Assembly: GCA_045837725.1 (NCBI GenBank)
Contig: JBEWZL010000066.1
Span: forward strand, 124,001 to 188,000
Length of the DNA stretch: 64,000 bases
Source: Vermamoeba vermiformis
Taxonomy: Eukaryota
Direction of reading: 5' to 3'
Each line of letters starts with the position of its first letter. Position 1 is the stretch's first letter. A program made the translations under genes and the position numbers. Below the pieces are notes generated by a model. The model had not been told where the DNA came from. It saw nothing but the letters and a program-made list of their open reading frames with translations, and ran no database searches. Positions 5,726 to 24,561 of the stretch are shown here, one piece after another.

Positions 5726-6140
5726 ATGGGACGAGGAGGAAAGAGCCAAGCAGCAGCTGGCGTTCGAATTGAATTAGGAGGAGCTTGCCGTAGCATTATA
5801 TTACTCGCGATTGGATTTGTTGTTCTATTAACAGGCATTATACTCATCGGAGTGGCTTATGGGCAGGTGCCTCCTAACGCAGGTAAAGACCATTTTAAAA
5901 AATAAAAAAATTCTTAAATTAAGTTTGCTTTACTTTACGATGTATAAATTTCATCTTAACGATCGTATTTTGACAATTTATTATTTATTAAAATCAAAAA
6001 ATAATGAAATTTTAACCGCCAGAGCTTTAATAGGCTCGCTGGTAATCGCAGGAGCAGTCCTATTATCAGTAGGAAGTGTTATAATTATTATTGGTGGTAT
6101 TTTATTAAGGATGCAATTCCAAGATGGACGACGGAGGTAA
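5726..6140 (+). CDS. Small two-transmembrane protein of unknown function
   Basis: MGRGGKSQ...IILLAIGFVVLLTGIILIGVAYG, GT donor at ~5883, AT-rich intron, second hydrophobic exon GSLVIAGAVLLSVGSVIIIIGGILLRMQFQDGRRR. Confidence 0.6.
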
Positions 6141-6423: not shown

Positions 6424-7774
6424 TTATTTCTTAAGGACGTTGATTGGGATTTTGAAGTATGACACGCCGTTCGTGTCAGGATCTGGAAGACGACCAGCGT
6501 TCACATTAGCCTAATAATATTATATAAGTATACTAACCGGCATCTATAATCATAACTTACTTGAATTGAAGGTAAAATCAAGTTTGGCGCGGATAATTTC
6601 TCATCACGAGTGGTTCTCAGGCTAACAAACGTTTCTTCGCTAGTGCCGAGCTTGACGTGAATATTTTCAGCTTTTTCTTTGCCAACTAATATATTCGCAT
6701 TAGTTATAGTGACTATAAATACATCGACGCGCAACTAAATTGGATTCATGAATTGGATCACGTACCGGTTGTTTCGCATTGAGCTTCGCGGCCAGAAGGA
6801 GGATAATCATGGCCTAATATTCATGTAAATACTATGTGATATGTAACAAAATAAATAAGACGTACCAACGAACAGTCTGGTATCGTCGGGCAAGCTGAAG
6901 ATCTTTTGAGTAATGGATTTGTACAAAGTCACGGCAGATCCACCAGGGAAATCGCAACGAGCGGTACCAAAATCAGGCTACATAATAAGCATATATCAGA
7001 CACGTTGAAAAAGGCTTCATTAATTGAATTTCAAGGGTTCATGAAAAGATCCTTACCATGAAAATCGTATCGCCAGTGAATACGCAATCGCCAATGACGT
7101 AACATAAGCAACTAGGTGTCTTTAATCATATATTAATAACCATTAGAATATTAGAGGCCCCGTAATAATATATTAATATCTATTTATATATTAGAGGCGG
7201 AAAGTACTTACGTGGCCAGGAGTATGCAAGATCCTGCCTTTAATAGTTCCCACTGAAAATTCATCGCCGTCTTTGAACAAATGATCAAATTGCGAGCCAT
7301 CAGTGCGCAAATTAGCCATATTAAAGATGGTCTTGAAGTTTGATTGGACGACAGTAATATCAGATCCAATTGCAATTTTACCACCCATCTTCTCGCGAAT
7401 ATAAGGCGCGGCTATAGTAATATATTATTATATGGTGATTTTTGTATTTTAAAATAGCCAGAGATTAGCAATTTCAGCTTGTTTAATGAAAGGTCACAAT
7501 TGATTTCAAAAATCAATTTTAAAAATTCAAAATAATTACCTGAGATGTGGTCTGCATGCGCGTGCGTCTCCAATATCCATTCTACACTAAGACCTCGTTC
7601 TTGGACGTACTTGATGATCGAATCCGCAAACTCCGTCGAAGTTGTGGCGGAATTGGCTTTGTAAATCATAACTGAGTCGATGATCGCGCACTTCTTGCTG
7701 GCCTCATCTTCGACGACAAAGGACCACGTGTTGGTACTCGTTTCAAAGAAAGACTTGACTACAGGCTTGCTCAT
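6424..7774 (-). CDS. Persulfide (sulfur) dioxygenase, metallo-beta-lactamase fold, ETHE1/Blh/PDO family, bacterial type II-like
   Basis: ILETHAHADHIS, HTPGHTP, VFTGDTIFMPDFGTARCDFPGGSA, GHDYPP, C-terminal GRLPDPDTNGVSYFKIPIN; about seven exons; no obvious N-terminal transit peptide. Confidence 0.92.
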
Positions 7775-8042
7775 CTGTTCTGTTGTATCAGAATTTTTCC
7801 TGTTTAAAAAAAATTGAAGGATTGACGCTTATAAGTACTATTGCTATCGGAGTAGGAGTTAATGGCGTCTAGAAGCGTCCAAAGATAATATTATCAAACT
7901 CCGGCGTTCTATAAAAGGAAAGTCACGTGGAGCAATCGTCAGGAGTTTTGTGATTGCGCGGTAATACACAACTCCGACATAAATAGCCGCAACAAATATG
8001 TTTTGTTATTAATTCAATCACTTACAAACGAACACAACAAAA
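7775..8042. promoter_or_regulatory. Putative bidirectional promoter between the persulfide dioxygenase and YeeE/YedE genes
   Basis: 268 bp between divergent ATGs; TATAAAA 7910-7916, TCACGTG 7923-7929, palindrome GATAATATTATC 7884-7895, GGAGTT/AACTCC four times. Confidence 0.55.
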
Positions 8043-9525
8043 ATGCAATGCGAAATTAAGCCTCACGTGCCGCATCAGCACTCCGTTGCCGAAACTATTA
8101 CCAAGTCGCTTATTTCGGCGGCAATAGGCACTGTATTTGGCTTTGCGCTTAATCGAGGGTTGGTGTATCACCCCGTCGTTATTCGCGAGCAATTTATCGG
8201 CCAGAACTTTACTATGATGAAAATGTTTTTGTCGGCCGTAACCAGCAGTTTAATAGTGAATTCAATTATGTCTATCATCCCTCATTTCAAGAACAATTTT
8301 GAAAAATCAAGAGAAAAATACTACAAAGGTAAGCAATTATTTTGAAAATATAATCGCCAATAAAGCTAATTTAAATTCTATTCAGGTCCTTTACCAGCAA
8401 AACAAATTTTGATAGGCGCAGGGCTGCTTGGCGTTGGCATGGCAGTCTCCGGAGCATGCCCCGGAACGGTAAGTGTCTCGGAGGTTTCCGAATGAAAAGA
8501 TTTCTAGATGCGTTCATGAATAGGATCTTACGTGTATTATACGATAGGTGGCCGCACAGATGGGCGCCGGAGTTCCTGAATCAATATTCACCATGATTGG
8601 CTCGTTGCTCGGAGGAACAATTTTCATGTTGTCTGAAAGTGCTTTGGACAGTCCTAAGAAAGCAGATCCAACGTAAGTAATGCATTTAAGCACGATAACA
8701 AACACGTTTGTATCAATTTGAGCGCAATTCCTTCCAAAGCAAAGTCACGAAGGCAAATCCACCAACATTATTGAGTTTGCTACGTTTACTTACTCTTGTT
8801 TGGTTTTAGTGCTACATTAGAAAAGAGATGGAAACTACCTTATGCCGCCGTAGCATTGCCTCTATCGGCCGCTCTTGGAGCATTTGTTTACGTGCTGGAG
8901 AAGATCCGACCATGGACAACCGAAAATCAAGTTGCTTTGACCGCTGTGGGAATGGCAAGTCATTGATATAGCTCTTAGTATATATGATAGCCACAATACT
9001 AACATAATCGCTCTTTTACAGGCTGCTGGTACTCCTTTCAGTTTTTCAAATCTGATCTGGCCTCCTTATGTCGCTGGTGCTCTTATTGGCTTGCTTCAAT
9101 TGTTCAACGTGCAGCTCTTAACGCATAACATCGGTTGCTCGAGCTCATACATGACTGTCTTGGCTCAAGGCGCTTACAACTTGTTGCCGGAGAGCCTCCA
9201 CAAGCACATCCACCTTGCCTTGCAAAAGAGATCTGGTCTTAGTAACTTGATGCAACCGACATTTGTGGCTGGTGCAATTTTGGGCAGCTACTTCGCTGGC
9301 AGCGCCGTCCACATCACTTCCTCGCTCTTTTCAAGCCCGCTCCGATCTTTCCTTGGCGGATCTCTTTTGCTTTTTGGTGCTCGCGTAGCTAACGGTTGCA
9401 CGTCAGGTCATGGTATTTCTGGCTTTTCAAACTTGAGCTGGAGATCTTTCCTAGCCGTTGGAGGAATGTTTGCTGGAGCTTTTGTTGCTGGCCTTAGTCT
9501 GAAGGCCGCAGGATTATTCCATTAA
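8043..9525 (+). CDS. YeeE/YedE family (Sulf_transp) thiosulfate/sulfur transporter, two halves in one chain
   Basis: FGFALNRG, GVGMAVSGACPGT, WPPYVAGALIG, NIGCSSSY and FGARVANGCTSGHGISG signature motifs; multiple hydrophobic segments; about five exons. Confidence 0.9.
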
Positions 9526-9797
9526 TTTTTTTTGCTAATAATGTAAATAAATATACGTGGTAATTAATAATATTAATGCAGCTGGTTTGTTATTCCCGTT
9601 CAAAAAATCGCCATATGTCAAATCCGACTACAACCATTGAAGTACTTTGACCGACATTCTTTCTGTGGTTGGTTACGGTATTAGGTTCAATAATAATTAT
9701 GATAATTGCGTTGAATATCAAAGATTCTGGTGTGTTGTTATTAATACTTTCGCAGCAGAAATTTTATTTTTAAATTCACTTTTTGAAAGGCGCAACC

Positions 9798-12700
9798 ATG
9801 AAGCGCGTATCTATCATTATGTAAGATATTATATGATCTGCCTATCTTTATCCTTAAATTGGGACTAATTCAAAATTTCAGATTTGCTTGCAATAATAGC
9901 CTTATTGTTTTGCAATAGCATCGAAACCAGGTAAAATATAATACATACAAAAAAATCGTATTTAAAAAGCCTCGTAATGAAAAGACGATAAATAGGAGTA
10001 AATTTGTATTATTAATTCAAAAAAACTTTCAGGACGCCTTTACCACCGTCTTCATGGGACGTTTTAGCTCCATTCCCTGCAGGTAAATTTAATATTAAAT
10101 ACTAGTAATTATAATAGCGTTATTAATATTGCTGGTATTAGGCACTCGCGAGACAGGTGCTGATCCTCTTAATGCTTACGGAGGAATTTTCAAAATTAAA
10201 CGCGCTGATCCAAGCGCTAGTTATCCTTCAGACCTTGTTAACGGCGGAGTGTAAGTACTAAAAAAACAATATTAATATTTGACAGATCGAGCACGAAATT
10301 TCTAAAATTTCTGTAACAGGGTGACTTGGACTAAAGCAACGCCAGATAACAATGGCAATGTAAATATAGGATTTAATTCATCGTACGTCAATTGGAACCT
10401 GATTGAAGGCTGGGCTGGTCTCGCTGGTGCTCAATTCAAAGGCTGGGCCATTGGTGACTTTACAGTCGATACTGCTGGCACGTAAGTTCCTCATTATGAT
10501 GGAATTATGTACTACTACGCAAGTACTACATAAATACATTATACACGATTCAAATGAAGTCGTTGTTAATGTAACTTTTCATCAGCTACATCGTGTTCTG
10601 CAAAGGCGTCGATAATTTCTACGTTGATGACGTGCATTTGCGTGGCGATGTCTATGGATTAGGCTACGGTATTTGGGCTGTCAAATTGACTACTGGCACG
10701 CACAGTTTCTACGTGCCATTTGGTGGTATGGAGGGCACTTCGTTCAACTGCAACTTCACTAGCAGACCTAACCCTGGCTCAAATATTATGGTCAAAGAGA
10801 ATTACTACGAGACTCAATTGTCTCCTAATGTCGGTAAGCCCTAGCCTTCATACCTCTCATGAAATAAGCTCGATGAAGTGGTCATGTTGCACGCACTAAC
10901 GTGTTTATTTACAGTGTTGTACAATGGTCAATCAATCTTGGCCAGTCCATTCTTTGCTATTAATGTGCTCAACATGGACACTCAAAACTCGTTGGCTAAC
11001 ATCGCCGTGTCAACTTCGACTCCTGGTTTCAAAGTGCAGCTCCAAGAGTACCCGACACTCGCACCTGGTCAAGCTTGTAAGTACCACGATAGTAGTACTG
11101 CGATAAACAGTCTCACATTAATCTCTTCTTGCAGCACAAGTCGTGATTCGTGTCGCCATGTCCTCGTCAGTTCAATGCACGAATGTGACCTCAGGCAACA
11201 GCTGGATGTTGCTTACTAACGTCACCTTCACTGTCACTGCCAACGGCTCTTCGCCTGTATCTACGACATACTCGTTGGAATGCCGCACGTGGAATTTGGC
11301 TTACAGATTTACCTTCCTTGACGGGGATCAGGTACGCACGACTATAATTTTTTTTAGCTCTATATTAATGTTAACCGTAATGCTTAGTCCGTGCAATACG
11401 CTGTTGCAAGACCACCAATCTACGGCTGCACTCGTTTCGCTAACAATGCATGCCCGATTTTGTTTTCACTCCATGGTGCTGGTGTAGACGCGGATGGTGG
11501 GCCGTGGCTCGGTTCATACATGCAACAAAACTACTCGTGGACCTTGCTGCCAACTAACCGTGGCATCTACGGCTTTGATTGGCAAGGTGCAGGTCGTATC
11601 AATGCGTTGAAGGCACGTGATTACCTTGCGCAAGCGTTGCCAGGTGTGCCTGCTGATTTGCAAAGCACTTATCGCGTGGATTCTACGAAGATCATTTACG
11701 CTGGTCACTCGATGGGCGGTCACGGCTGTTGGGTGCAATCGACCCATTATCCTGATCGTGCTCTTGCCGTAGTCCCTGCCGCTGGATGGTAAAGCCTAAT
11801 TGAGAGTATTAGCGCAGCTATCTAACGTAACACTAGGATCAAAATGCAAATGTACATCCCTTCGTTCTTGAACCTCGGTGGCGCGTTAGCTTCTCCGTAC
11901 TTAAACTACATCTTGGAAGCTTCGATCTCAGAGTACAACACTGACTTCTATTCGAGACACTTGGTGGGCATTCCTCTCATGGTCAGAATGGGTTCTGATG
12001 GTAAGCCAATCAAACAATCTAATCTCCAAATAGCCATCTAACACGAGCAACAGATGACAATGTGCCTCCTTACCACTTGAGACGAATGGTACGTACAGTT
12101 GTTAGTTAATATGAGCGCGTTCTAATGGAATGTAGGCACGAATTGTTGATGAAATGAGCGGCAATCCCAACACCGTGAAGATCAGTGAAGTTCCGGGCCA
12201 AGGTCACTGGTGGTGGGGCATCACTGACGATGATGTCATGCAAGACTTCTTCGACCGTGCTGCCGTGAGTTCATTGCCTGCCTTGCCCAATGAATTCATT
12301 GCCACGACTCTTAACCCCGTCTCGTCCGAATGTACGTGCCACCTGCCCTTAAATTTGTCTTACATTACTGATTTTATCCTTAGCTCGTGGTGGAATTCAA
12401 ATCCTGCAATTACATCTCCCGTATCGCGCTGGATTTGTCCACGTTACTCGCAACGTTAAGCAAGGCCAAAAGATCTGGAGACTCCGCACAGAGAACATTC
12501 GAAGATTGGGATTCATATATTTTAAGGACTTGGAACAGCCTACAGATGGTACGCTATATGAGCATTTGTATATTCACGATCTAATTTATCCCTTCAGGTT
12601 TCTATTTGGACAACCAATTCTTCTCATGGTCCGGAACAACCCCGCCATATCATTACTACAAGTCTGGTGGCTCGTGGAAGGTCTCTTCAAGCTATGATTG

Positions 12701-15245: not shown

Positions 15246-17453
15246 ATGTTTGAATCACTACCAACGGAGACACTAATAGAAATATTGAAGCAGAACTTGC
15301 ATTTTGCGGATTTAGTGTCCGTAGCGAGTTCTAGCTCTAGCTTGCATAGAAAATTAAGAAAATATATGACAAAGAAGATAATAGGATTTTTCAATGGATA
15401 TAACCCCGAGTCATCGCATTCTATCAAATATTTTGCATTTTTTTGCTCAGATGGATCTTTTTTTCATGGCGAAGATGATTGGTCGTGCGAAGAGCGAAGG
15501 TAAAATTTACATAAATATTTTTAAATAATAATAATACACTTTTCATATGAATAATGCTCAATCGAAATTGAAAAATACTTATTGTTTATTTGCGTACGAC
15601 GCCTGTCACGCATAATTAAGTCTAAAATAATTTATTTTCTATTAACAGGAATTCATATACTATGGGATTATTGTCATTATCAGAAACAATCGAGTTATTT
15701 AATGAAGCCGAATCGATAATGCATTTGCCATTTGACAAACTCACCAAATCGTATGAAAAGATGTTTGATAAATCATTAGAAGAGGTAAATATAAAAATCT
15801 TAGTATTAATTCATTTTAATAAATGATTTGGATCCGGATCTAATTTTGGATTTGTAGGGTGTCAACAATAATGCTGCAGAATCGAATGATTTCGATGAAA
15901 ATTTTGATCCCGATGATTATGATATGGACAAAGACTTAAATGAAGACAATAGATCAATTGAATATAACAACGAAGATGAAATTGAAAGTACATCCGGAAC
16001 TTCAGTGTCATTTTATTACAACCATAATCATTCTCCTCGATACCAATATAAGATTTATAATTCTTCTGAGCTATTATTACCAAAAGAGGAAATACTTCGC
16101 ATGAAAATGATCAAGAAGATTACTATGAATAATGACGCCGTGAAACAACTGCGATCCAAAACTGAAACTTATTTTGACAAGAAATCACCAATGGGAGCAT
16201 TCTTTGAATACGTAAGCACTTTCTTAATATAGCATCACTTGCCTTATTTAGTAATCGTTAACTTTTAGTACGGAACAATCATTCAAATGACAGGCACAAG
16301 GCCCGTTTATCGAATTTCAATCTCGCCGCACGGTAATGCGAAAATTAATTATTATTTTTATTATTTTTATTTATTTAATTATTAATAGGACTGTTTTGTG
16401 GTGATTATGAGTGCGGTCATCCAATGGGCATTGATTCAACGAGCTTTGTAGCGCAATTAAACGTCAAATCGGTGATAAAATTCTTCAAAGGTACTATATT
16501 AAAGCATTATAGTATCATAGTATTGCGATGTACTGATTTTTTATGTCAGATCTGAGGCCGGTTCTATTGCCTTACAAAGACGGCAAAATCTCGATTTCAC
16601 ACAAAGAAACTGACCGAGACTTCATCGTATTTCACGCGCTATATCCTAAAATGGAAAGATTTGCATTGACAGCGTAAGTCAGTCATTTCTATTAACACCA
16701 TATTAACCTAATTTTGTCACAGAACGGAACTACATCCGCACTTGAACATTACTTCCATGACGAACATTAAGGCCTTATTGTATAATCTGTACGAAAATAT
16801 CATTTTCTATTATTATTGATACTAATGATTGGATAGAATGAAAAGGAGGCCCGAACAAGAATGGATGTGGAGTTTGCAATCAACACCTGCACCTGAGCAT
16901 ATTAATTTTAAGTTCCATATTATATCAGATATATTAATATCTCAGTACGAATACTCGCCGATATTAAAAATGGATGTAGAAGCCATGTAAGTTCATGAAA
17001 TATTATTGCTGGATCCGCTCACTTTACGCAACTTTTTTATAATAGGCGGTTTGTCGTATCATCTGAATATTCGAAAGAAATGTTACTAATATTGGAGTTG
17101 CAACAATCATTTGATGAATTTTATGGTACGTATTAGTAGTGCTTTTGAAAGTTGTCGCTAACTTGAGCGGATCCAGCTGACTACGACACTTGGAGAACAA
17201 TACCAGAGCCTGCTTTATCCAACACGCACATATATGTTGGTCTATTCGGCACTCAGGTACTATATTAATATCAATTTTGACAATTGAAGCTAATGATGGC
17301 CTAATTTAGACGACGCAAGTTGAGGGCAGAGTGAAAATTCATCCGGACAGTCCTTCGTTCAAAATCTTCCAACAAAAATTACTCGAATTTAAAGAGACGC
17401 ATAAGAACACTGTTAGAGTGATTGATAGTGATGGGGATGATTACTCATTTTGA
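15246..17453 (+). CDS. F-box protein with uncharacterised C-terminal region
   Basis: N-terminal MFESLPTETLIEILKQNLHFADLVSVA; chain of short GT-AG-bounded exons ending DSDGDDYSF*. Confidence 0.65.
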
Positions 17454-20151: not shown

Positions 20152-23100
20152 TTATTTGGGCGTTGGTGTTGTGCTGCCTCCAAGTCCCAAATCTATCGAA
20201 AAGGAAGATCGCAGAGCGTTGGGTGTGATAATAGGAGAGAAGAAGCTAGGGCTTGGCGGTGGCAATGAGAAGCTGCCGCGGCTGTTCGTTAGCCCAGTCA
20301 AGAATGGCAATGGCGAGGGCGAAGGAGAGGGTGAAGGGCAGCCCAGCAAATTGCCTCCTGGGGACATCGGATCTCCAAAGAACTTTGGTGTGAATCCACT
20401 GTTGATACCCGGCAGAACAATATTAAAGGGTGATGAGGGTGCCGGGAGGGTGCTTGGCACGGGAGGGAACTTGAATGCGGAGCCTACTTGGTCGTTGCCA
20501 GCGCTATGAACACGAGGGTTAGCACGCGTAATTTGATCGTCAAAAATAATTGCCAGCCAAAATCTATCTTTCTAAATTCTTTGCAATATGTTTGCAGTAC
20601 TTACTTGGCTGATTCTTTCTTGACTTCGACTTCAGGCAAGTTAACGCTAGGAACACTCATCTTGTTCGCGGATAAGAGTGATTGGTGTTCTTGCATTATT
20701 AGCCTGTTGTACAGAATGGCGCCAATAGGGCAACGCTCGTTGTATTCGCCGAGCATAGTAAGACCCTTTTTAGCCAAAGTTGACTCTTGGAAGTGACGGC
20801 CGACTTGGATGGCGTAAGACAATGCGAGAGCGGTCGAAGGATCAGCAACGAAGAGGCGTTTTTGCTTCTCAAAGCACTCAACCGCCATTAGTACGGCATC
20901 GATGGCCTAGTTAATAAATTAGTTCAACGTACTTGGCAAATAAATTTGAAATCCCAAATATGGTTAATTGTTTCGGGGGATCGGACCAATTATCCGAACG
21001 CTTACCTGAGCTTTGAAACCAAGGTGCGATAATACGATGGCTCTGCAAGCGGACACGATGACGCGGAAAGCATTGAAGGCGTCCAGGTCAAATCGGTCGT
21101 TTTCTTTCATCTGTTCGACGCCGTTGTTGATCGCTTCTTCGGTTTCTTTTAGGTACCGCAACATCGATCTACAAGGATTGGTTAAATGCGCCCGTAGATA
21201 CGATAGGTTAGACATGTTTGACGTACTGTAATTCCATTCCTTCTTTAGATGTGACTAAAACAGGCGCAGAAGGCAGGGAAATAAAAAGATTCGACGGAGT
21301 TTCGCGCAATAGCGGACTACGAAATAATTAGATTACGCTCTAAACATGACGCACTAGGACGTACCTGATCCACACAAAGGCTAGCATAACGCGGTTATCC
21401 AAAGTTTGTCCTTCTTTAGGGATCGACTCCGCTTTGGTTAGCCTTTTAAGACTTGGATTAGCTCCATGGTTCACAAGACTAAGGCTCGGATAAACTTACC
21501 AGTGCAGCCGATCGTCTGATGATTGGCTCATGCCTACAGCCATGGCAATAGTTCTGTGGTAGATCACTGGATGTAGGGCACTGTCATTTTGCAATCGCAA
21601 GAAGTTCCAAGCGTGCAAGAAGAATGCGCGAGCGGCATCGACCTCATCGATGGTGAGCTTGAAGATACCAAGCAATAACAACGTGCTCACGAGCATCGTC
21701 AACTATGATACGAAACACGGTTAGATCGTGTAATGCATTGCGAAATCAGAATTGGCGCACGAGATCTCGAACAGAAACTGAAACAATTTCGCGCTTGTCA
21801 GTCAGAACTGATACTTACCAATTGAGGAACGCCCACACCTTGTGTATTGAACAAGAATTGCTTGACGAGTTGCTCGGTCCTCTCCGCGAATGCTAGAGCT
21901 CGTTCATCGCTGCGCATACAACGGTAACCTGCGAGTGCAAAAAACTATAATTAGTGTCTCATTTCGGAACAATAAATTGATATGATCGCGCGGAACAATT
22001 TCTGGGTGACATCCACGCGAAAAACAAGAATGCACAAGTAATTACAAATCATAAAGATACGACACATATTAAATTAATCGGTAATAATCTTGCGCTGCCA
22101 TTCTATTCATGATTTGTAAAATTTATCGAAATCGCATCTTGAAGTTGGATTCATGAACAAATTAGCGCTAGATTGTACTAGTCGGAACAATTTATAGGCA
22201 TAGATGGAAGTCCTCTTGTCTTTAAGCTATAATGCCCAGAACAATTTAAAAAGCGAGAATCTGCACCAGATTTTGGCGACACAGTGTAAATTTGTGAATC
22301 CGTTCGATAACAATTCAAGAAATAAAATTTAGTCTGACTGCGCGCAATTTGAAATAAAATATAACAACGGCATAAGGGATTAAGATTTACGCTTACCGTG
22401 CATGAAAAGAGCGCAATAGTAGCCCATCTCGATAAATTGAGCGGGATTTGTTAGGCTGTTCGTGGGTCCGGTCGCTACCAAGTCCCAATAATACCACGCT
22501 TTGTGTTCATCCAATGGGTAAACGCTGGCAAAGGGAAATATTCTTCCGAGATCTTCCGTGACACTCGAGAGTAGAACCTTTGCGTCGTTACGATTAAAAG
22601 AGTCCTTTGAATTGCTCGTTTAAATCCTGCAGCGTATTTGTGTTGGAAATATAAGAATATACCTTGAAGTGCGCGGGGATTGTTGCTCCGCTCGTCAGAT
22701 TTCGGCCTTTGGATTCGTTTGTTCCTTTTTCGTCAGCAGCCAATTTGCCAGTATATGCCGTAAATAGGTTTGCAGATACTGCTGCAACATGAGGCGCTGT
22801 ATTAGCCTTTCCTAAAAGTGGGCTGTTCGATTGTGGAATGTGCAAAGGCTCACGCGAATCCACCACTTTCGGCTCGGGTTTCTCTTTCTTTACGCGTCTG
22901 GGTTGTGGTGGGCTTGATTCGTCGCTCGATCCACCCTTCTTCTCGCCCTTGGGCTTAGGTCCGCGCTTCGTTGGCTCTTTGTACACGCATTCTATTCCTC
23001 TCTTTTTACAGTTGCTGCAGATCTTCTGTCCATTGCATCGTCGGTGCAATGCGCGGCAATTGAAGCACGCGTTGGATACATATCGCATTTGAGAGCGGGA

Positions 23101-23289
23101 GAGTGGGTTCTTTGGCTTGCCGAGTTCGTCGTTCGAGTCTGGTTCTTGTTTTACTTGTTTCATGGGAGATTTACTTTCGTATTGATCATTCATAATCGTG
23201 TTAATGCCTGACGATGATGAATGTAAGTGTCCAGGGGCTGGATTATCAATAGCATTTGCTAAGTTCATTAGATGTGTCAGGTCGGTCAT
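20152..23289 (-). CDS. Zn(II)2Cys6 (Gal4-type zinc cluster) transcription factor with helical middle region and Pro/Ser-rich C-terminus
   Basis: ACFNCRALHRRCNGQKICSNCKKRGIECVYKEPTKRGPK; downstream exons splice in frame (VLLSSVTEDLGRIFP..., GYRCMRSDERAL...) to a Pro-rich last exon ending STTPTPK*. Confidence 0.85.
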
Positions 23290-24561
23290 GCTGGGCAGTT
23301 AGGTGTTTTTAGTTGCTGCGGGTGGTGTAGTGATGTTATTGATAGTGGCAACCTATTAAGCTGACTAAATATGAGCTGAAACTGAAGCTGGCAAACTAAT
23401 TGCAAATTCCGCCCTCGATCTGGATCCGCACTTGTTGTCTTCTTCAAGACTATCAAAAATAAAGTGTGACGAGTTATGTTATCTGATAAGAACACGGAAA
23501 AATTATGCTGATTACGAAAAGGAAAAATACAAAATGAAAACGGAACCCACGGAAAAAGCCCGAAAAATAGCTATCACGTGCCTCAAAACAGCGGAATTTC
23601 AGGGGATCTCCCACGTGCGTTACTTAACGCTAAAATTGTAACCTTCGAAAGAACAAAAATATCTTTTTATCATTTTGCATTAACTTTTATGATCAGCTGT
23701 CATAAGTCTCGCGACGATTTCGCGTGCAAAGAGGCACATCCAACCTTGGAACAGACTCGACTCAGAGCCAAATATTTCAGTCTTCTTCCAGTACTTTAGC
23801 TTATTCTTTCAATCGTACAGGCTTGTTTTGGCGAACTAAGTTGATTTACGCGAGTTAGGTCAAAATTTGTTTGAATTTTCCTTTTATAGCAAATAAGTGT
23901 TTCTTACGGACAAGCTGATTCTACGCGCTCTCTCGTTTAAGAGTGTTGAGACACCAATATAACCTCGGAATACTGTAAGGATCATCAGTTTTAAAGGACT
24001 TTAATTTTTCCGTGTTTGTAACCTACAAAAAAATATTCTTTATTTAACTGCAGCCTCGAAACGTATACTTTACCAAGGCAAGCCGTTAATTATATTCGTA
24101 CTCGTGCCACTAGTTAAGCCAATAGAAACTGCGTGAGTACTCATCTCCGCGATCTCTTGTGTCATTACCGTCCTGTTCCAAACGCAACTGACAATAGTAT
24201 CAATCTAAGCCCACCTAACCAATATGTGCGTAGTGATTTGGTAATTTGGTTCGATGGTTGAATTTCACCCGATAAATCTTTTCTTTCCCAGCTAATCGTA
24301 ATTGCACTGTCCTTTTTTACGGTCCGTCGTCATCACCTTCTGCGTAGGAGGTACCTCCGCGAAAGTATGGCACTTGAGGTACTCATTATAAAGCGTTTGT
24401 AACAATAGCGAAACAAAAAAATAAGGAAAATTTTTACTTGACGGCTATTTTCTTATTAAAGACAGAGCCATCTATAATACAACAAGTCAGCGAGTACTTG
24501 CCATTGTAAATAGGAACGTTGTATTATAATCGCTTGAAAGTACATACAGGCGGTTGGAAAA

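Follow-up and report, generated by a model that had tools for sequence, protein, structure and literature searches.

Head-to-head genes for a type II persulfide dioxygenase and a fused YeeE/YedE membrane protein in Vermamoeba vermiformis: a candidate non-mitochondrial sulfane sulfur module

Introduction

Why should a eukaryote carry a gene for a persulfide dioxygenase (PDO) of bacterial type directly beside a gene for a YeeE/YedE sulfur transporter, and did the two arrive together? The question is raised by a 64,000-nucleotide stretch of the Vermamoeba vermiformis genome (assembly GCA_045837725.1, contig JBEWZL010000066.1, positions 124,001 to 188,000; hereafter the window, whose own numbering is used), in which a type II PDO gene (6424..7774, minus strand) and a fused YeeE/YedE gene (8043..9525, plus strand) diverge from a common spacer. 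For eukaryotes, the oxidation of persulfides is described as the work of SQOR and ETHE1 in mitochondria, persulfide being oxidised to sulfite in the human mitochondrial SQOR-ETHE1-SUOX pathway (PMC12170894), and type II PDOs are described as proteobacterial (PMC12856154). In Acinetobacter, the operon yeeE-yedE-pdo2 is sulfide-responsive and belongs to the BigR regulon (PMC7315123). In bacteria, the split transporter YedE1E2 imports zero-valent sulfur, makes glutathione persulfide (GSSH) form faster and works better with PDO2, whereas fused YedE3/TsuA shows no such activity (PMC10812762). YeeE-like proteins were noted to occur in eukaryotes in a 2024 paper (PMC11073785); a literature search, with supplements and most subscription papers outside its scope, found no study of eukaryotic YeeE function, of a eukaryotic type II PDO or of this pairing.

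The reading that we consider rather likely is that the pair forms a co-regulated non-mitochondrial module, in which sulfane sulfur would be imported, passed to glutathione and oxidised by the PDO to sulfite.

Results

Gene structure and splicing

The start codons of the two genes, at 7774 on the minus strand and 8043 on the plus strand, enclose a spacer of exactly 268 bp (7775-8042). The PDO gene encodes 289 amino acids in seven exons (7774-7540, 7411-7212, 7119-7057, 6977-6866, 6813-6766, 6685-6561 and 6510-6424, minus strand) separated by six introns, and in the gene model its C-terminus reads GRLPDPDTNGVSYFKIPINVLKK; the YeeE/YedE (PF04143) gene encodes a membrane protein of 380 amino acids in five exons (8043-8328, 8386-8468, 8548-8672, 8810-8954 and 9022-9525, plus strand) separated by four introns. 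Splicing was examined in contigs of four public runs, each from a different study, of strains about 95-99% alike; these runs have no RNA status on record, yet their contigs are spliced. All ten predicted introns are joined, eight in all four runs and two in three of the four, and the last YeeE intron (8955-9021), which is of the GC-AG type, is joined in all four. Among the listed strain differences in coding exons, 32 of 38 are synonymous (19 of 24 in PDO, 13 of 14 in YeeE), and thus both genes are under purifying selection.

At the 5' end of the PDO gene, contigs of three runs extend unspliced to 7813-7841 and hold no in-frame ATG upstream of 7774, so that no presequence exon has been missed in these contigs, and the first 30 residues of the protein contain four R/K and four D/E. 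The divergent spacer, the introns in both genes and the lack of a PDO presequence, all given in a preliminary description of the window, therefore stand. Two other PDO models were tried and discarded: an upstream presequence exon using a polyT-CAG acceptor at about 7801, through which the contigs of three runs read unspliced, and an alternative acceptor at 6712 (299 amino acids), ruled out by the 6685/6766 joint found in all four runs.

The dioxygenase

Judged from its sequence, the window enzyme is a stand-alone type II PDO, for which oxidation of GSSH with O2 to sulfite is predicted. The iron ligands H71, H145 and D162 and the glutathione-binding arginines R173, R243 and R246 are present, so that all six ligands named for PaPDO/PpPDO are kept (in PaPDO the iron triad H71, H146 and D163 and the arginines R174, R244 and R247; PMC12856154). 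The motif THAHADHIS fits the pattern T-H-x-H-A-D-H-x-S/T which, together with a size larger than that of type I and a C-terminal extension, marks the type II enzymes (PMC6060420). A spliced relative, P0001, which is 92% identical to the window PDO, matches the P. aeruginosa PDO (9G8T) at E 2e-100 and the P. putida PDO (4YSK) at E 1e-94, as against 6e-22 for human ETHE1; identity of the window PDO to proteobacterial PDO2 is 55-62%.

The preliminary description had also named the enzyme Blh, a label that has to be dropped. The NCBIfam profile NF040641 matches all five PDO exons that were scanned, and these matches are confined to profile positions 140-423 of 423, which points to a stand-alone PDO2 and not to a Blh fusion; the N-terminal sulfurtransferase domain (positions 1-139) is not matched, and the spliced contigs hold no upstream coding exon. 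The identification as a PDO of the type II class in that description is borne out.

The fused YeeE/YedE protein

Regarding the second gene, for which the genome search found a single locus, its assignment to YeeE/YedE is upheld by a PF04143 match on exon 5 (76 bits against a cut-off of 27) and by the fold of a family member, the Cavenderia protein P0128, whose model (pLDDT 94.8) matches 6LEO, 6LEP and 8K1R at E of about 1e-10 and TM of about 0.7; the fold evidence concerns this family member and not the window protein, for which a model of exon 5 only (pLDDT 67) was uninformative. The window protein has Cys120 in the motif GACPG, Cys339 in the motif GCTSGHG and an extra Cys252. When the family profile is aligned to 6LEO (StYeeE, from S. 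thermophila), C91 falls on Cys120 and C293 on Cys339, while equivalents of C22 and R215 are absent, and Cys120 and Cys339 are kept in at least 90% of 124 family members. In StYeeE, C91 and C293 are essential and C22 is dispensable, the latter being essential in E. coli YeeE (PMC7449682). Going by motifs rather than by an alignment, Cys120 and Cys339 would be the equivalents of YedE2 C101 and YedE1 C104, and the layout of YedE1E2, with one essential cysteine per half, is present in the window protein.

All 20 full-length matches are fused proteins, those with names coming from Branchiostoma, Cavenderia, Gonapodya and Hypoxylon, in agreement with the earlier remark that fused YeeE proteins occur in other eukaryotes. 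A profile search gave 781 clusters of the fused family at E 1e-30 or better, and 20 look-ups among YeeE clusters and two PDO groups gave the names Ploeotia, Asterias, Amoebidium and Pecten; the taxa of the family include amphioxus, starfish, scallop, an ichthyosporean, a euglenid, a dictyostelid, chytrids and ascomycetes. Matches to the NCBIfam profile TsuA are weak (22 bits against a cut-off of 645 for the largest YeeE exon). No YeeD/TsuB partner was seen among neighbouring open reading frames (a genome-wide search for it was not made), and no PDO-YeeE fusion among the 20 longer representatives scanned out of 150 listed.

A second PDO, of probable mitochondrial type

The genome search found two type II PDO genes, the window copy and one on another contig (G000:C101, about 499770-501190, equal to L014:4270-5688), which encodes 322 amino acids in its gene model. 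The N-terminus of this paralog, MLRTVVNSVVRVKSKPDQMATLQKRGFST (MLRT...KRGFST), contains seven R/K and one D/E in 30 residues, is split by an intron and, read from composition and without a predictor, appears to be a mitochondrial-type presequence; an N-terminal extension of this type is also found in P0429, an unrelated database protein of the same PDO group. The paralog stands head-to-head with a Rieske/FAD oxidoreductase gene 276 bp away. A search with one type I query found no ETHE1-type gene in the genome, a single-query result that does not imply absence.

The two PDOs are 55% identical and have four intron positions in common, with the same phases, which indicates that the window PDO is an old presequence-less duplicate. 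A first tree with type I and type III outgroups was spoiled by long branches; without the outgroups, the set was reduced from 69 rows to 43. In the unrooted 43-row tree (LG+G4), six eukaryote-type rows (window PDO, P0001, P0170, the paralog, P0198 and a fungal PDO) are separated from 37 bacterial-type rows by a branch with support 90/93; the eukaryotic origin of P0170 and P0198 is presumed, and the bacterial PDOs were sampled from best hits. Under a mixture model (quick tree) the group keeps its five non-fungal members (82) and the fungal PDO, on a long branch, is placed elsewhere, and a tree holding all six together scores 31.8 log units higher (p-AU, from the approximately unbiased test, 0.894). 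The analysis does not reject one clade of the six rows, which is compatible with it and unproven. A one-residue insertion was considered as an exclusive marker of this group and rejected, being present also in the bacterial-type P0249 and in one of 36 GTDB rows. As far as sequences and intron positions tell, the history is an old duplication inside eukaryotes of an ultimately proteobacterial-type PDO gene, giving a putatively targeted and an untargeted copy.

Bacterial relatives of the pair

A metagenome scan for relatives of YeeE gave 80 loci, selected as best hits and read as 72 bacterial and eight eukaryotic. The bacterial loci contain split genes of about 170-190 amino acids, and it is to such halves that the eukaryotic family is most similar among bacterial sequences; a gene of about 470 amino acids encoding an MBL-rhodanese protein (type III-like PDO) lies within the fetched flank in 26 of the 72. 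Conversely, a YeeE half lies within 4 kb in 38 of 80 bacterial type II PDO loci. Against the eukaryote profile, C-terminal halves score a median of 121 bits beside the type III PDO-rhodanese gene and 47 bits beside type II PDO; because best hits made up the first set, no more can be read from this difference than that the halves of PDO2 operons are apparently not the nearest bacterial kin. In a tree of the C-terminal halves, the short PDO2-linked halves are set apart on a branch of their own (99), and the window protein is placed in a 14-row eukaryote group (93); monophyly of eukaryote YeeE is absent from this tree, where two changes would be needed. Among the metagenome loci L015, L019 and L021-L093, which carry bacterial split halves of 170-190 amino acids, often downstream of an MBL-rhodanese gene, the halves of L015 and L019 resemble the eukaryotic fused proteins unusually closely, with scores of up to 181 bits.

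Linkage in other genomes

With about 20,000 genes assumed for the genome (43.3 Mb, about one gene per 2 kb), one YeeE gene and two type II PDO genes, adjacency by chance would be expected at about 2 in 10,000. The eukaryotic loci available for comparison numbered eight, of which three were too short (1.2-2.6 kb) and five were fungal genomic loci with flanks of 3-8 kb. The fungal locus L037 has an intron-bearing fused YeeE gene followed, 833 bp downstream on the same strand, by an intronless, presequence-less type II PDO gene; beyond the PDO lie a DUF1275 membrane protein gene and, about 5 kb further, a Fungal_trans transcription factor gene. With features at 7354-10168 (+), 10732-11862 (-) and 15416-16258 (-), about 9 kb in all, this locus is a possible fungal sulfur cluster. 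The synteny survey proposed in the preliminary description was thus answered in part: linkage recurs in L037, and no PDO was found within the fetched flanks at the other four fungal genomic loci. The functional link suggested there is strengthened by this recurrence and by the mitochondrial-type paralog, from which the window copy differs. Since the fungal genes are in tandem and the window genes head-to-head, we favour repeated assembly of the pairing over one inherited block; ancestral retention remains compatible with the data.

The divergent spacer

The 268-bp spacer holds both 5' untranslated regions (UTRs). YeeE contigs reach back to 7982, leaving about 140 bp (7842-7981) uncovered by contigs, which is the probable shared promoter; this is a weak hint, as contigs cannot fix a start site. 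The hexamer AACTCC, a candidate shared cis-element, occurs there four times on alternating strands (7855-7860 -, 7897-7902 +, 7942-7947 - and 7970-7975 +) and, among hexamers with at least three G/C, is the only one with a four-copy cluster within 121 bp in the window. It was picked after inspection of the sequence, and in a shuffle test that admits any hexamer with at least three G/C such a cluster appeared in 8 of 5000 shuffled spacers. A 16-bp inverted repeat (7838-7853 / 7971-7986) marks the outer region of the cluster. At the sulfite oxidase locus described below, nine AACTCC occur in 3.5 kb, three of them in the roughly 650 bp before the start, and the pattern ACTCCGA..AATAG showed no genome-wide enrichment (23 hits against 27 in controls). 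The hexamer presumably resembles a Zn2Cys6 half-site. A Zn2Cys6 transcription factor gene is located at 22594-23298 (minus strand), about 13 kb from the pair; no sign that it regulates the pair was seen. The E-box GTCACGTG in mid-spacer (7922..7929, plus strand) was rejected as a pair-specific element, with five copies in the window against 1.2 expected, and probably belongs to the promoters of this genome in general.

Sulfur pathway context

The genome encodes a sulfite oxidase with a mitochondrial-type presequence (L185:745-2481, G000:C204), one of four family matches, and the genome search found no candidate for a sulfite reductase; disposal of sulfur therefore fits better than its assimilation. 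A canonical sulfide:quinone oxidoreductase (SQR) was not found with two queries, a coarse search from which absence is not implied. The only SQR-like match to these queries is a divergent gene (L176:3300-5700, G000:C87 at about 103800-106200, minus strand) with Ala at the position of the query's C-terminal catalytic Cys and, by eye, no CAGAPQ motif, and is possibly a pseudoenzyme. No rhodanese match was found on the window's contig, and a TauE-type exporter gave one weak genome match, below the cut-off. Were a working SQR really missing, both PDOs would draw mainly on persulfide that is imported or produced by enzymes.

Other genes in the window

A two-exon gene for a small membrane protein (5726-6140, plus strand), with no Pfam match, stands head-to-head with a leucine-rich repeat gene, and one contig joins it to the 3' end of the PDO gene, suggesting overlapping 3' UTRs. 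Directly downstream of YeeE lies a long multi-exon gene for a secreted-type alpha/beta hydrolase (about 9800-12100, plus strand), with no sulfur link seen. At about 35600-60400 (plus strand), a large multi-exon gene containing repeated 'DTGVPELN' segments is present in about six diverged tandem copies.

Discussion

The two-cysteine layout, the resemblance of the GACPG and GCTSGHG loops to the split halves and the untargeted PDO next door favour a route of import, persulfide relay, GSSH formation and oxidation to sulfite. In this proposal, YeeE would be a one-chain fusion of two half-transporter types and would move polysulfide or S8 (zero-valent sulfur) inwards through the plasma membrane or that of a phagosome; on Cys339 and Cys120 the sulfur would be relayed in persulfide form before being handed to glutathione, and the adjacent type II PDO would oxidise the GSSH with O2 to sulfite, which may end as thiosulfate or, via sulfite oxidase, as sulfate. 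The presequence-bearing paralog would serve the mitochondrion. The PDO copy would derive from the old eukaryotic duplication and YeeE from a widespread eukaryotic family, and selection for shared control, rather than transfer as one operon, would have brought the genes together or preserved their linkage. The substrate, the direction of transport, the membrane and the co-induction of the pair are what we infer; zero-valent sulfur is preferred, thiosulfate being a less likely substrate.

Several points weigh against this proposal. The cytosolic location of the PDO is deduced from the missing presequence only, and co-regulation is presumed. Head-to-head spacing below 300 bp is ordinary in this genome, the next divergent pair in the window being 220 bp apart and the pair at the paralog 276 bp. 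Only one of the five fungal genomic YeeE loci has a type II PDO, and its arrangement is tandem. The AACTCC clustering was not seen at the paralog, at the SQR-like gene or at the five fungal YeeE loci. The eukaryotic family is much nearer the longer type III-linked halves than the short YedE1E2 type, and since import was measured on the latter, distant type, the substrate is extrapolated; the literature search found no eukaryotic YeeE with a tested substrate.

If YeeE instead imported thiosulfate in the manner of TsuA, the sulfur would be passed to glutathione, and on to PDO, by a rhodanese or a protein of the TusA type, or it would serve nutrition. The one-chain architecture, the fold shared with the thiosulfate transporter StYeeE (as modelled on the family member) and the dispensability of C22 in that protein (PMC7449682) speak for this. 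The loss of C22, essential in the E. coli protein, and of R215, the weak TsuA scores, the lack of a rhodanese match on the contig and of a sulfite reductase candidate make us regard thiosulfate import as unlikely. We also think it quite unlikely that YeeE exports the PDO product (sulfite or thiosulfate) or excess persulfide, the pair then clearing internally made sulfur. The species transported in the Acinetobacter operon is called unknown (PMC7315123) and the single TauE-type match is below the cut-off, which leaves room for an exporter, but YedE1E2, which needs one cysteine per half, sped import and not export (PMC10812762), and StYeeE is likewise an importer (PMC7449682).

Mere adjacency in a compact genome rich in divergent pairs, with the genes working independently, would suit the 220- and 276-bp pairs, which join unrelated genes, the four fungal loci with no PDO in their fetched flanks and the fact that this window was picked out of many scanned. 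Against it stand the low estimated odds of adjacency (given the estimated gene number), the independent case of L037 and the identity of the neighbour, which is the presequence-less and not the mitochondrial-type PDO, and we hold chance to be improbable. Less credible still is the transfer raised in the preliminary description, namely co-arrival of both genes as a piece of a proteobacterial yeeE-yedE-pdo2 operon with introns gained later. The identity of the PDO to proteobacterial PDO2 and the frequency of YeeE halves near bacterial type II PDO genes would agree with it; the separate branch and low profile scores of the PDO2-linked halves, the fused, eukaryote-type character of the best full-length YeeE matches, the four intron positions common to the window PDO and its paralog and the divergent orientation would not. 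With YeeE belonging to a broad eukaryotic family and the PDO grouping with eukaryote-type rows, the trees, for which bacteria were sampled as best hits, do not place both genes in one bacterial donor clade; a common donor and co-transfer of the operon followed by intronisation are, on this sequence evidence, not supported.

A wider reading, which we offer tentatively and hold to be doubtful, is that the fused eukaryotic YeeE family, with its hundreds of clusters, consists of sulfane-sulfur importers, that YeeE and a non-mitochondrial PDO form an old, repeatedly re-formed and SQR-free pathway for external or ingested elemental sulfur beside the mitochondrial route, and that type II PDO, not ETHE1, acts in both compartments of this lineage. 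Here two type II PDOs are apparently split by targeting, and the untargeted one shares its promoter region with the sole YeeE found. For an unstudied YeeE family that is also present in fungi and marine animals, the pairing suggests a specific and cheaply testable function, and it hints that microbial eukaryotes oxidise sulfur at a second site.

Comparison with known systems

With the P. aeruginosa (9G8T) and P. putida (4YSK/4YSL) enzymes, the window PDO shares all iron and glutathione ligands, the length and the C-terminal extension; the class is described as proteobacterial (PMC12856154), whereas this eukaryote has two copies, one with a putative presequence. The Blh proteins of Xylella and Agrobacterium have the dioxygenase domain in common with it and, unlike it, an N-terminal sulfurtransferase domain. 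Oxidation of persulfide to sulfite and a presequence-bearing sulfite oxidase link the predicted route to human SQOR-ETHE1-SUOX; the enzyme here is type II and not type I, the window copy has no presequence, and the only SQR-like gene found is divergent. Compared with TsuA/YeeE (S. thermophila 6LEO, and E. coli YeeE with YeeD), the transporter has the same fold, the fused two-repeat architecture and the equivalents of C91 and C293, but is about 20% identical, lacks C22 and R215 and has no adjoining YeeD. YedE1E2 consists of two separate genes for proteins of 13-15 kDa, whereas the window YeeE is one chain of 380 amino acids, and the short halves lie on a separate branch. Compared with yeeE-yedE-pdo2 of Acinetobacter (PMC7315123) and YedE1E2 with PDO2 of Cupriavidus and Sinorhizobium (PMC10812762), the association of a type II PDO with a two-cysteine YeeE/YedE is common to all, and import, GSSH formation and oxidation are probably alike; the window genes are eukaryotic, spliced and divergent, the transporter belongs to another subfamily and is a single fused chain, a BigR/ArsR repressor was not seen next to the pair, and a separate mitochondrial-type paralog exists. 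Both parts and their bacterial pairing were known, and to these the present analysis adds the confirmation of splicing, the split into targeted and untargeted paralogs and evidence against co-transfer.

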